NCBI GenBank assembly: GCA_014905635.1
Contig: JABVCE010000021.1
Span: forward strand, 1 to 64,000
DNA: 64,000 nt
From: Scenedesmus sp. PABB004
Taxonomy: Eukaryota
Reading direction: 5' to 3'
Below, one piece after another: positions 1 to 5,400 of the stretch. How positions within the stretch are numbered: position 1 is the stretch's first letter; every line of letters begins with the position of its first letter. The notes beneath the pieces are model-generated. The model saw only the letters and a list, made by a program, of their open reading frames with translations, was not told where the DNA came from and searched no databases. A program made the translations under genes and the position numbers.

Positions 1-209
1 CCCTAAACCCTAAACCCTAAACCCTAAACCCTAAACCCTAAACCCTAAACCCTAAACCCTAAACCCTAAACCCTAAACCCTAAACCCTAAACCCTAAACC
101 CTAAACCCTAAACCCTAAACCCTAAAACCCTAAAACCCTAAACCCTACCCTAGAAACCCTAACCCTAAACCCTAAACCCTAACCCTAAAACCCTAAACCC
201 TAAACCCTA
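1..209. repeat. Telomere, (CCCTAAA)n = TTTAGGG type, left chromosome end
   Basis: 17 perfect CCCTAAA units at 1-119, then a degenerate proximal zone at 120-209 (CCCTAAAA, CCCTAA, CCCTA, CCCTAGAAA variants). C-rich strand at the 5' start, as expected for a left end. Confidence 0.99.
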
Positions 210-215
210 TCTGCC

Positions 216-486
216 TCTGATGATGTCAGCGCGGCGGTCAGCGTCAGCAGCGTCTCTGCTGGTGCGGCGGCCCCTCGGGCTGCCGTTACCGGCGCGGCGA
301 GTCGGTGTGCAACACTGGAGCAGGCTCGGCGTTATCTGCTTGGTGACCTGCTGCAGGATCAGCTTGCTGTTCACTCTGTGGCAGATTATGTGATGGACAT
401 CTGGAAGATGCGGGACACCGTCCTTAAGGGGCGCGGGACCAATGGGCGCGAGCCTGTGGTGTAACTATCTTTATCTTTATCTTTTA
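216..486 (+). mobile_element. 5'-truncated non-LTR retrotransposon (LINE, RTE/RTEX-like) 3' remnant with tandem-repeat tail and 7-bp TSD
   Basis: Lower-GC segment with a stop-free frame ending at TAA 462-464 (...LEQARRYLLGDLLQDQLAVHSVADYVMDIWKMRDTVLKGRGTNGREPVV*), resembling LINE ORF2 C-termini (WxxR motif). (TATCTT)3 follows at 466-483. ATCTGCC flanks it at 209-215 and 487-493. Confidence 0.7.
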
Positions 487-1034
487 ATCTGCCACGGAGC
501 GAACAGCAAGCGCCGATGCGCCCGCCCGGCACTGACGCCCGAGGCCGACGCGCCCTGGCTGAACGGCCCCGCCCGCCGCGCGGTCTAGGGGGAGGAGGAG
601 GAGGATGGGGGGAACGCACGGCAGACGGGCACGGCTCGTGTTTCAGCGCCCCGCCCGAGCGCTTGCTGAGAGTGCAGTCTTGCGCGTCCCCATCGACGCC
701 GCCGCACGTCGCGCAGCCGGCCACCGCGACCACGCTCGCCGCACCGAGCAGGGCGCGCGCCAGCCAGCATGCGTCCCCGGGCCGCCGCGTTGCCCCCCCT
801 CTTGCCACCCATTCGCGACGCGCCGCCGGCGCCCCTTCGCAGCGATGCCCCCACGCCCCCAAGCCATGCAGACCCTGCTGACACCAGTCAATGGGCCGCG
901 CCTGCTCGGCGCGCGCCCAGCCCCCTCGCGCCCGGCCGCGGCCGTGCTCGTGTGATGCGAGCGCGTGCCCGCCGCCCCCAGAAAACCCCACATGTGCGTC
1001 GCGTGCTCGCGCAGCCATCCTCTCGCACACACCC

Positions 1035-2385
1035 CTAACGCTGCCGCACGCGCCACGCGGTGCGGCTGCCGCCGCTGCTGCCGCTGCCGCCGCTGCCGCC
1101 GCTGCCGCCGCTGCCGCCGCTGCCGCCGGCGCCGCTGGCCTTGGCGGTGCCAGCGGCAGGCTGGGCGGCCGCGCCCTGCGCGCGCTTGCCGTCACCGGCC
1201 TTCGCGGGCCGCCCCTGCCCCCCGCGCTGCTGCGGCGGCACCATGTGGATGGCCGCCGGCAGCGCCGCCGCCGCGTTGTGCGGCGCGGGGGCGCCGCCGA
1301 CGCCGCGGCCGTGCAGCGCGCCCGTCGCGCCAGCGGCGCCCGTGCACGCCTGGCGCTGTGGCCTGCCGTGCGTGCGCGTGACGGCCTGCCAGCGCCCGTC
1401 GAGCAGCTCGCGCGCGCCGCCGGCGTCAAAGCTCCTGGCGGCGTGGCGCGCCGCCGGGGGGCTGGCCGGCGCGCCCGCAGCGCCGCGAGCGTCACCGCCC
1501 GCGCGGGCGTCGCCGGCGACGGGCTCCAGCGCGGAGGCAAGGCTCGCAATGAACGGCGGCGCCGCGCAGCGCGCGCCGACGCTGGCGTGCCCCGACGGGC
1601 CGTCGCCCGCGCTGGGCGCCGCGCACGGCTGTGCTCGGCGCGGCGGCTCACCGCCACGCTGCTGCTCGTGCGGCGCCGCGCCGCAGGCGCTGTGCTCTGC
1701 CACCACGCCGCCGTCCTCGACAGGGGCGGGCGTGACAGCAAACTCCGCGGGCAGGGTGCCAAACTGCAGCTCAGCCGGCGCGGCCTCGCCCGCCTCGCCG
1801 CCGGCCGTGCCGCCGCCCTGGCTGATGAGCCCCGGCTGCTCCGCGGGCGCGCCGCCCCACTGCTGCCACGGCGGCTGCTGCGCCTGCTGCACCGCCGTCG
1901 CCGCGGCGAGCGCGTACTGGCAAAAGTAGTAATGCGCCCAGCCCGCCACGTACGCCTGCTCCTCGGCGCTCAGCGGCGAGACCTCCGCGCCCGCCGCCGC
2001 GGCCGCGGCGCGGCCGGAGTGGACCCACATGTCGCGCACCGCCGCGTCGTGCGCCGCCGCAAGCCACTGCTGGTGCAGCAGCGCGGCGCCCTGCAGCTCA
2101 GAGCCGGGGTACGACGGCTCTGCCGCTGGCAGCGAGGGCGGGCCGTGGCCTAGCAGACCGTGGAGCGCAAGCGCCTGGGTCGCCACCGCCCCGGCGCTGG
2201 GGGCTGCTGCAGCTGACCGCTCCCGCGCCGCTGCTGCGTCCGCCGCTGCTGCCGCCTCGCCGCCACCGCTGGTGCGCCGCTCGGACGGGGCCACCGCGGC
2301 GGGAGCCAGCTGCCCCGCCTGCGCCTGCGGCTGCGCCTGCGGCTGCGCCTGCGGCTGCGCTTGCTGCTGCTGCTGCTGCTTCTGC

Positions 2386-2427
<42 letters not shown>

Positions 2428-5400
2428 GCCTGCTGCGCCTGCGGGTGCTGCTCCTGCTGTGCCTGCTGCGCCTGCGGCTGCTGCTCCGGCCTCAGTGCCT
2501 CGGCCGGTGCCGGCAGGCGGGTGCCCGCCTTGAACGGCGCGCGCGGCTCAGCTGCAGCGCGCGCGCCGGCGCCGGGCGTGGCGCCGCGCGCCGCGCGCAC
2601 GGAGGGCGCCGCTGCAGCCTGCTCTGCGCCGGCAGCCGCAGCATCCGGCTTGCGCGGGGCGCTCCGCTCCTGCTGCTCTCCGCGCTGCTGCTGCTCCTTG
2701 AGCCTCCAAAGCTGGCTGAGCTCCTCGGTCTGCTGCAGCAGGCGCGCCTGCAGGAGCTGCTCTGCGACCAGCCTGCCCTTGGTTGCGCTGTCGCGCTGCA
2801 GGGCCGGCCCCAGCGCAGCTGCCGCGCGAGCAGCACCGCCCTGCAGCTTGTCACCGGCGCCGCCGCCTCCGCTGGCAGCTGCCGGCGCCTGCGGCGGCGC
2901 GCCAGCAGCGCTGCCCTCCGTGTCGCTGCCGTCGCTGTCGACCGCCTTCCACGCGGGGACCTTGCGCGGCCCGCTCGCGGGCTGGGGCTTGGCGGGCCTG
3001 GCGGGCTTGGCGGCCTTCTTCTTGTCCCGCCTGCCCTTGCCCGCTGCGCTGCTGCCCTGGCCGTCGGCCTGGCCGCTCGGCGCCGCGCTCTCCTCCAGCA
3101 GCTGCGCCATGATGCGCTGCGCCTCGGCGTCCTTGGCCTGAGGGCGTGCCGCGCGCGGGAGCGAGCGGTGCGCGGCGGGCACGTCGGCGCGCCGCGCCGC
3201 GCGCACGCGACAGCGCTGCCGCCCGCGCGCGCGCGCGCGCACGCTCCCGCGCGCCGCCCGGAGCAGGCTCCCCCGCACCTTGTGGAAGGCCGTGACCACG
3301 CGGCGCTCGAGCCAGAAGCTCAGCGCGGCGTCGTCTGCGCCCCACTGCGGCAGCACGTCCAGCACGTCGCGCCCGCTCGCGACGAGGGTCATCACGCCCT
3401 CCGCCGACCAGTGCCCGCTGCAGCCGGGCTCGCCCGCGCCCGGCACGATCACGCCCGTGTGCCCGCGCAGCAGGCCGTCGCAGACGATGCAGTCGCACGG
3501 GCTGGTGTGGGGCTGCTGCAGCAGCCCGGGGTTGCACAGCCATGTCTCCTCGCTTGCGCGCTCGAGCAAGCACAGAATGCGCTCCAGGGCCGGCAGCGGG
3601 GCGCGCGGCGCGGGCGCCGCCGGCGCGTGGCAGCCGCACGCGCACGCCCACGTGTGCGAGGCGCTGGCATCGCCGCCCGGCGCGCTGCAGCCAGAGCAGC
3701 AGGCGCGGCGCACGCGCGCCACGTGCGCGGCGGCCAGGGCAGCGGCGCCGCTCGGGGGCGGCGCCTGCGGCTGCGCTGGCGCCGCGGGCTGCTGCTGCGC
3801 CTCCTGCCGCTCCGCCTCGGCTGCGCTCTGCGCTGGCCAGCCTGCGCACAGCCGCTGCAGCTCGCTGAGCTGCAGCGGGGTGCCCTCGCCAGCCACGCCT
3901 GGCAGCAGCGCGCCGCTGAACCACGCCCTGGCCGTGCTCAGCGCCGCCAGCCGCGCCTGCGGCGTGACCTCGCCTGCGGCGTCGCGCTGCCGGCTGCGCG
4001 CGTCGAGGCGGGCGAGACCCTCTGCACTGACCGCGTGCGGCTCGGGCAGCGCCAGCAGCGCCGCCAGCGCGCCCTCCGGCAGCGCGCGCAGGAACGCCAC
4101 CACCCCTGCCCTGAACGCCTGCGGGCGCGCGCGCGAGGGCACTGCGTCAGCGGCGCTGCAGCAAAACTTCACGGCGCCCTCACAGCGCGCAGCGGGCCGC
4201 CGCTGCACACCTTGGTCGTCGCGCTGCGCGCCGACGGCAGGTGGCTCAGCTGGCAGCGCGTCTTGTTGAGCTCCGCGCGGAAGGTGAGCTTGCAGCCCTT
4301 GAACTTGCACCGCAGCGCTGGCGCGGCTGCGGCAGTCGGCTCCGCAGCCACGGGCGCAGGAGCAGCCGCGGCAGCCCGCCGCACAGCGGGCGCCTCGTCC
4401 TCGCTGTCACCCCCGCCCGGCCGGTCCCACAGCGCGCTCTCCAGGTTGTCGCGCGCGCGGCGGCGCGCCTCTCGTGCGGCGCGCGCTGACGCGTCCGCGT
4501 GCTCGGGCGCGCCCGCCTTGGCGCGGGGTGCCTTCTTGGCCTTGGCGCCGCCGCCAGGCTTGGCGCCGCCACCGGCCGCCGCGCCAGTGGCGACGGCCGC
4601 TCTCGAGCGCGGCGCGCCCGCGCCGCCCCGCTCCGCCGCCGCGTGCGACGCCTGCTGCTGGCGCTGCTGCAGGCGCACGCGCAGCTCAGGCGGGTCGTCG
4701 TCGCTGCAGTCGCTCGCAGCGCAGCCCGGCAGCTGCGGGTCGCTGCGGCCCGGCTCAGGCTGCTGCCCAATCACGTGCGTGCCCGGGCCTAGCTGGGCGC
4801 GGCGGCCGCCATCGTGCGGCCTGAGCTCTGCGCCGTTGGGCGCCGCAGAGACCCCCGGGCTCGAGGGGTGGCTGGTGCTGCTGAAGGTCGACCGCACGCC
4901 GCCTGGTGCCAGACCCGCGCTGCCGCCCAGCGCGGCGGCACCCGGCGCCCAGTTGAGCGGCGGCAGCAGCCCGGGTTGCCCCGGCGCCCCGCCCGGCAGG
5001 GCCCTGGGCAGCTCCATCGGCGCCGTCTGCGCAGCCGCATCGGCGGTCGCGCCGCGCCTGGGCGGCAGCGTGCGCGGCGGCAGCTGACGCAGCACGTGCT
5101 GCACCGGCGCCCGCGCCGCGGTCAGGGCGGCCGCCGCGAGCGCCGCGGCCGCGCTGAAGCCTGCGCGGCCCTCGCCGGCGTCGCTGCCGCCCGCCTCGCT
5201 GCCGCTGCCGCTGCCGCTGCCGCTGCCGCTGGCGCCACTGCCGCCACCGCCGCCGCCCGCGCTGCTACCGCGCGGCCCGCCGCCGCGGGCTGCACAGCGC
5301 AGGCGCACGTCGTCCATGCCGGCCTCCGAGCCCGAGCTGCTGTGCGCGTCGCTCTCGCTGGGCAAGCGCTCGTAGCAGAACTCGGCGTCATCCACGCCGC

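Follow-up and report, generated by a model that had tools for sequence, protein, structure and literature searches.

At one end of a contig of the green alga Scenedesmus sp. PABB004, the telomere runs straight into the remnant of a retroelement, and the locus raises the question of how the remnant came to lie there. The first-pass annotation of this DNA had placed the insertion exactly at the telomere junction, and had proposed that either a LINE family targets such junctions or a break at the insertion was healed by telomerase. We analysed the whole stretch in which the remnant lies, called here the window (64,000 nucleotides of contig JABVCE010000021.1). The observation itself was confirmed: a young, 5'-truncated 3' end of a LINE, with a target-site duplication (TSD), lies at the junction with the telomere array (Table 1).

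Table 1. Features of the chromosome end, in window coordinates.
Feature	Position	Strand	Basis
Telomere array, C-rich strand (CCCTAAA)n	1..208	+	TRF: period 7, 29.7 copies, score 345
5' copy of the TSD, ATCTGCC	209..215	+	direct reading; the only other + strand occurrence of the 7-mer in the window is at 487
Single extra T at the 5' junction	216..216	+	no counterpart in the parent; metagenome contigs and parent protein match only from 217
5'-truncated 3' end of a LINE, putatively L1-like	217..484	+	match to P0001 and to the X1 and X3 contigs; TRF
LINE segment: last 81 codons	219..461	+	
LINE segment: stop codon TAA	462..464	+	
LINE segment: C	465..465	+	
LINE segment: (TATCTT)3	466..483	+	
LINE segment: T	484..484	+	
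TA of ambiguous origin (from the tail end or from the target)	485..486	+	other copies diverge after 484; the inverted 27-base match includes the TA
3' copy of the TSD, ATCTGCC	487..493	+	direct reading; 7-mer count in the window
Inverted LINE fragment of the same family, equivalent to LINE bases 362-388	485..511	-	blastn, shuffles, DNA fold

The telomere array (92% matches by TRF) was perfect over its outer 120 bases, and variant units were found within 121-208, namely CCCTAAAA (twice), CCCTA, CCCTAGAAA and CCCTAA (twice). Perfect outer units with variant inner units are what is usually seen at genuine ends maintained by telomerase, and not in assembly artefacts. The CCCT(A) of the last unit abuts ATCTGCC directly, and a stop-free frame of 86 residues (204-461) runs through this join, with the C-terminus ...DYVMDIWKMRDTVLKGRGTNGREPVV*. 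GC content was 54-69% over 201-500 and 70-89% further in, with 79.1% for the window as a whole, and TRF scored the tail at 3.2 copies with 100% matches. The join between the telomere and ATCTGCC, the open frame of low GC content, its stop codon, the hexamer tail and the second ATCTGCC were thus all found as they had first been described. Inward of the LINE, about 550 bases (494-1037) separate it from the end of an open frame of 1,123 aa on the minus strand (1038-4406), and subtelomeric satellite repeats are absent from this interval. A gene-like frame so close to the end, with no satellites before it, fits an end made by terminal truncation and healing. The frame, which has long runs of Q and A, is a candidate gene; it matched no Pfam family, and a homologue search at E 1e-10 was negative over 8,000 candidates, a set in which low-complexity words were abundant.

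The identity of the remnant was established from its reading frame. Residues 5-86 of the frame were identical at 80 of 82 positions (98%) to residues 1682-1763 of a 1,763-aa protein (P0001), and the C-terminus of a second protein of 1,661 aa (P0002) was 95% identical to the frame. Both proteins carry the source label 'LINE-1 reverse transcriptase-like [Scenedesmus sp. PABB004]', and Pfam detected RVT_1, Exo_endo_phos (APE-type) and PTM_DIR17_Tudor in each; the 86-aa frame on its own gave just a sub-threshold hit to Gal4_dimer (E 0.2). A parent that encodes a reverse transcriptase (RT) and ends in this 3' sequence, the existence of which had been set as a test of the initial proposal, is therefore present in P0001 and P0002, with both APE and RT domains. 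The two proteins are imperfect gene models, with N-termini that differ and are possibly chimeric. In an alignment of seven family members (A1), the P0001 model was seen to miss about 80 residues of the APE domain relative to P0002, and the P0002 model to have a foreign-looking N-terminus and gaps in the RT. In a further model, P0015, part of a LINE (85% identical, with 25% of the query aligned) is fused to a P-type ATPase model named CA1.

A protein search recovered 14 further clusters of the family, and several likewise combined Tudor, APE and RT domains; 12 of the clusters showed 42-49% identity and came from contigs 4-7 kb long. ORF length in the family ranged from 1,661 to 1,819 aa, and some contigs of about 6 kb were taken up by a single ORF for a protein of about 1,800 aa. 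Two conserved Tudor-like blocks with the signature Y.V.YTDGD.ETM lie ahead of the APE domain (A1 columns ~430-700; P0001 residues ~215-335, with the Pfam Tudor match at 31.9 bits) and are common to the relatives at 42-49% identity; PTM_DIR17_Tudor was recognized by Pfam in five of the seven aligned members. A CCHC-like motif, C-P-x-C...H-F-L-x-E-C, follows the RT and is invariant in all seven, and the last 40 residues, which are the part kept in the window, are conserved across the aligned members. Keyword searches of the papers available to us found no description of a LINE with a Tudor-type domain, and nothing relevant on telomere retroelements of Scenedesmus.

The element had been assigned at first to the RTE clade, and the resemblance is evident in the combination of APE and RT in one ORF, the near absence of a 3' UTR, the short tandem tail and the frequent 5' truncation. 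However, RTE ORFs are about 1,000 aa long and are not known to carry a C-terminal CCHC motif, whereas the proteins of the present family measure 1,660-1,820 aa and possess such a motif. The best matches among solved structures were to human L1 ORF2p (E 1.9e-15 to 2.5e-14), and those to R2 proteins were only slightly weaker (2e-13). The RTE assignment is accordingly not supported, and the parent looks L1-like, as judged from ORF length, the CCHC-like motif, the L1 match and the source label. Tails made of short tandem repeats recur across the wider family: one relative, present in three runs, ends in ...TAA A (TGACCT)n, another (L010) has (TCTTA)4 directly after its TAA, and three (L001, L003 and L005) have a common 3' UTR ending in (ATGT)4-5, after which their flanks diverge. 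The DNA directly after the tail of L010 (1663-1800) recurs about 1.2 kb downstream (2866-3008), which places this LINE inside a long repeat, either direct or tandem.

Where the element begins and ends could be determined from other copies. Logan contigs from four freshwater-metagenome runs were placed on window positions 190-1200; the runs contain at most 0.29 of the sampled words, and stretches that they do not cover are uninformative. Contigs from X1 (1,161 bases) and X3 (455 bases) matched 217-484 with one letter different, A312G, which restores the alanine of the parent. Upstream, both contigs continue into parent coding sequence, and after 484 they pass into two different flanks, so that the truncation at 217 and the 3' end are fixed independently of the TSD. 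These longer copies, together with the match to the parent, bear out the original description of the segment as the 5'-truncated 3' end of a non-LTR retrotransposon. Its placement at 216-486 was right overall, with two adjustments: the element starts at 217, T216 being extra, and the tail common to the copies reaches only to 484. T216 is probably an untemplated base added at the end of the cDNA. X1 also contained 667-813 of the window exactly, and X8 contained 496-760 exactly; with the longer copies of the element, this indicates that near-identical organisms carry both the unique DNA and the element. No contig of the four runs bridged 190-216 or 485-495, and both junctions are therefore known from this assembly only. 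When the LINE C-terminus was sought at the DNA level, 597 pattern matches came from JGI metagenome contigs, 591 from GTDB genome contigs and 444 from IMG/VR, and none was confirmed in any of the three collections.

ATCTGCC flanks the boundaries of the element, as had been claimed, with one extra base on the 5' side and two ambiguous bases on the 3' side. The composition-based probability of this 7-mer is 2.7e-5 per position, from which we estimate the chance of a 7-base repeat within a few bases of both boundaries at roughly 1e-4 to 1e-3. A TSD at boundaries that were set independently is what target-primed reverse transcription characteristically leaves. At the 3' junction the TA is surplus to a perfect in-phase join, and if it derives from the target, the 5' copy of the TSD is one A short. 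The proposed microhomology between tail and target was also found, the empty site CCCTATCTGCC having TATCT in common with the tail unit. TATCT occurs seven times on both strands of the 64 kb, and five of these occurrences lie within 208-482, at the telomere edge and in the LINE itself. If the tail must pair with TATCT-type sites, which are this rare in DNA of 79% GC, nested and end-proximal insertions would be expected from availability alone, and target availability is the simplest account of the place of insertion. The 3' flanks of both other copies begin with ATC, and there the ATC may belong to the tail.

A second piece of the same family adjoins the first. The inverted match at the inner edge of the element comprised 25 identities in 27 bases, both differences being transitions to G/C; it had an E value of 9e-6 in blastn against the whole window, and none of 2000 shuffles reached its local alignment score. 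When 355-520 was folded as DNA, the two arms paired with each other (z -5.4) in a stem of 27 bases that encloses the end of the ORF and the tail. Short-word blastn did not extend the match past 511, and neither tblastn nor blastn detected the LINE anywhere else in the 64-kb window, so that two pieces 0 bases apart are not background. Because the flanks of the two other copies differ from 485-511, the 27-mer is not part of the 3' end of the element, and its higher divergence (two differences in 27 bases, where the young copy has one in 268) indicates that the fragment is older or belongs to another subfamily. On the simplest reading of these bases, 485-511 would be what is left of an older, 5'-truncated copy in the opposite orientation, which would have been the target of the young insertion. 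The tail-ward part of this fragment is missing and the telomere stands in its place, which suggests an earlier terminal truncation capped by telomerase. In the fragment's own orientation (512-519, minus strand), the bases directly upstream of its 5' end read ...GCATCGGC and contain ATC, as do the first flank bases of the three other insertion sites; they may be the remains of the older fragment's TSD.

We favour, with moderate confidence, the explanation that the 3' end of a young, L1-like LINE was inserted by ordinary target-primed reverse transcription at the telomere boundary, within an older inverted scrap of its own family, and that target availability decided the place. The family would be built as a single long ORF (tandem Tudor-like domains, APE, RT and CCHC), followed by the stop and almost at once by (TATCTT)n. 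Earlier, a terminal truncation inside the older inverted copy would have been capped by telomerase, leaving a pre-insertion site at which the telomere was joined directly to ATCTGCCACGG; if the 27-mer predates the insertion, the empty site would have consisted of telomere or other DNA, then ATCTGCCACGGAGC... A nick in the G-rich (bottom) strand, predicted at 5'-GGCAGAT^AGGG, would have released a 3' end, ...AGAT, able to pair with AUCU of the RNA tail and to prime cDNA, the synthesis of which would have halted at element base 217 plus one untemplated base. A nick in the top strand 7 bases further in, at a position and by an endonuclease that are likewise presumed, would then account for the duplication of ATCTGCC. 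The insertion would merely have pushed the telomere 278 bases outwards. If the tail needs a TATCT-like site, targets would be few, and would cluster in LINE copies, which are richer in AT, and along the edge of the telomere. The order of older copy, healing and new insertion is reconstructed from a single locus, and it would need three events at nearly one nucleotide. The insertion appears ordinary, if unusual in its place, and the locus does not have the look of a new telomere system.

An alternative is that the family is actively drawn to chromosome ends or to copies of itself, in the manner of Zepp, through the specificity of its endonuclease or through its Tudor-like, chromatin-reading domains; many other insertions at telomere junctions or in older copies would then be expected besides this one. 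Two pieces of one family at one chromosome end, with none elsewhere in the 64 kb, would suit such behaviour, as would a 3' tail that faces the centromere and a parent ORF with a PTM/DIR17-type Tudor domain, seen as two conserved blocks and detected by Pfam in five of seven members. However, the 3' flank was neither telomeric nor LINE-like in either of the two other copies (30 letters shown; a telomere would be at the unseen 5' side), and telomere-type repeats were absent from all 80 related loci in metagenomes, which represent relatives with 23-57% identity and lie on short contigs. The fragments here are also inverted and not head-to-tail, and the rarity of suitable sites alone can account for the place. 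We regard active seeking as unlikely. A more elaborate form of it, in which a Tudor-APE-RT LINE of scenedesmacean algae homes to ends and to its own copies and repeatedly rebuilds the subtelomere after terminal breaks, seems to us similarly unlikely; its Tudor-like domains would perhaps read end-specific chromatin, and its (TATCTT)n tail would perhaps pair with rare AT-rich sites.

Comparison with known systems bears on the same alternative. TRAS1 and SART1 of Bombyx mori, which belong to the R1 clade, cut a fixed position in the telomere repeat and have telomere repeats on both sides. They resemble the present element in being APE-bearing LINEs that touch telomere repeats and insert by target priming. 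Here, in contrast, the duplicated target and the 3' flank are non-telomeric, and the telomere is in contact with the 5' side only, so that a fixed site inside telomere repeats, with repeats on both sides, was not found. The nearest parallel, judged by published descriptions, is provided by the Zepp and ZeppL L1 LINEs of Chlorella vulgaris, Coccomyxa subellipsoidea and Chlamydomonas. Zepp has a poly(A) tail, whereas the tail here is (TATCTT)n. One report describes Zepp as targeting existing copies and building arrays that consist mostly of 3' ends (PMC8226300), which counts in favour of active seeking. A second source places the first discovered nested Zepp clusters at chromosome termini and assigns Zepp two ORFs, one Gag-like and one encoding the RT (PMC3446292). 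The likeness lies in a green-algal LINE that is frequently 5'-truncated and inserts in its own copies, as a 3' end here lies in a fragment of its own family beneath the telomere. The gene models and relatives of the present family have, in contrast to the two ORFs described for Zepp, a single long ORF with Tudor-like domains before the APE domain, and the pieces at this locus are inverted and form no array.

The inverted 27-mer might instead have arisen in the same event, by snap-back (fold-back) synthesis at the 3' junction, in which case there would have been one insertion only and the first subtelomeric bases would have been made by it. The right arm begins exactly at the tail junction, the stem encloses the ORF end and tail as described above (27 bases, z -5.4), and by direct reading the terminal TA could pair with the TA at 387-388. 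However, the 5' TSD copy equals the first 7 bases of the inverted piece, which requires these bases to have belonged to the target already at the time of the top-strand nick, and the mismatch rate of the 27-mer (2 in 27) differs from that of the element (1 in 268). Target-primed reverse transcription, moreover, does not require end joining at the 3' junction. We consider snap-back synthesis improbable. Two other origins were tried and rejected: twin priming would put the inverted piece at the 5' side, and template switching or hairpin priming cannot be the source of the 5' ATCTGCC, as the cDNA end has no complementarity there.

The absence of subtelomeric repeats and a 1,123-aa frame that ends only about 550 bases inside are as expected for a healed terminal deletion, and they raise the possibility that the LINE was inserted internally and that a later break, at the outer edge of the 5' TSD, was healed by telomerase. 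A T-ended break can seed the addition of TTTAGGG. Such a break would have had to fall by chance within 0-2 bases of the edge of the TSD, and nothing ties a later break to the insertion. The presence of ATCTGCC at 209-215 implies, in addition, that the telomere was already joined to this sequence when the top strand served as primer; a 5' TSD copy needs the telomere beside ATCTGCC before the insertion, and the healing of a break at the insertion, one of the two explanations originally put forward, does not agree with this. We judge it quite improbable, and retain the preferred order, in which healing of the end preceded the insertion of the young copy.

Endonuclease-independent addition to an uncapped end, followed by telomere synthesis on the 5' end of the element, would also leave the element with its 3' tail facing the centromere and its truncated 5' end covered by telomere repeats. 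HeT-A, TART and TAHRE of Drosophila attach to the chromosome end with no TSD and form head-to-tail arrays that replace telomerase, and endonuclease-independent L1 insertion occurs at dysfunctional mammalian telomeres; both share with the present case the direction of the tail and the position of the element at the very end of unique DNA. The gap in the APE region of P0001 relative to P0002 would suit an endonuclease-independent route, against which the APE domain is kept in family members. End priming yields no TSD, whereas a 7-base duplication flanks this element, and in place of head-to-tail arrays the locus has a single young copy and an inverted scrap, with a normal telomerase-type array capping the end. 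This route is very improbable. That there was no insertion at all, the locus being ordinary subtelomeric sequence in which a repeat occurs by chance, or a chimera produced in assembly from a telomere read and a LINE copy, might be entertained for junctions that no independent contig bridges, and is similarly far-fetched given the 98% identity to a LINE ORF end, the coincidence of the boundaries with those of other copies, and a TSD exactly at these boundaries, which a chimera would not create.

On the preferred reading, the locus would constitute a base-level record of how a chromosome end was built in a very GC-rich green alga, with an old LINE scrap capped and a young copy inserted at the cap. 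It suggests a possible simple, non-adaptive reason for LINEs to pile up on each other and near telomeres, namely a tail that pairs with AT-rich sites and has few targets. As it stands, the case is one ordinary insertion in a notable place. If the family were found to favour ends genome-wide, the Zepp phenomenon would be extended from trebouxiophytes to the Scenedesmaceae, and a Tudor-type reader would be a possible targeting module of a LINE.

A minor observation concerns the DNA further inside. One X8 contig of 151 bases matched 637-760 exactly and then continued, on the inner (right) side, into 27 letters of degenerate telomere-like C-strand repeats; this join comes from one contig of low depth, and the X1 contig spans 667-813 as in the window. 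The terminal block could thus lie somewhere outside a telomere-like array. Such an arrangement might reflect a telomere that is interstitial or older, a second chromosome end, or a strain with a rearrangement. If the LINE did home to chromosome ends, the same contig would be a second case of sequence added outside an older telomere.
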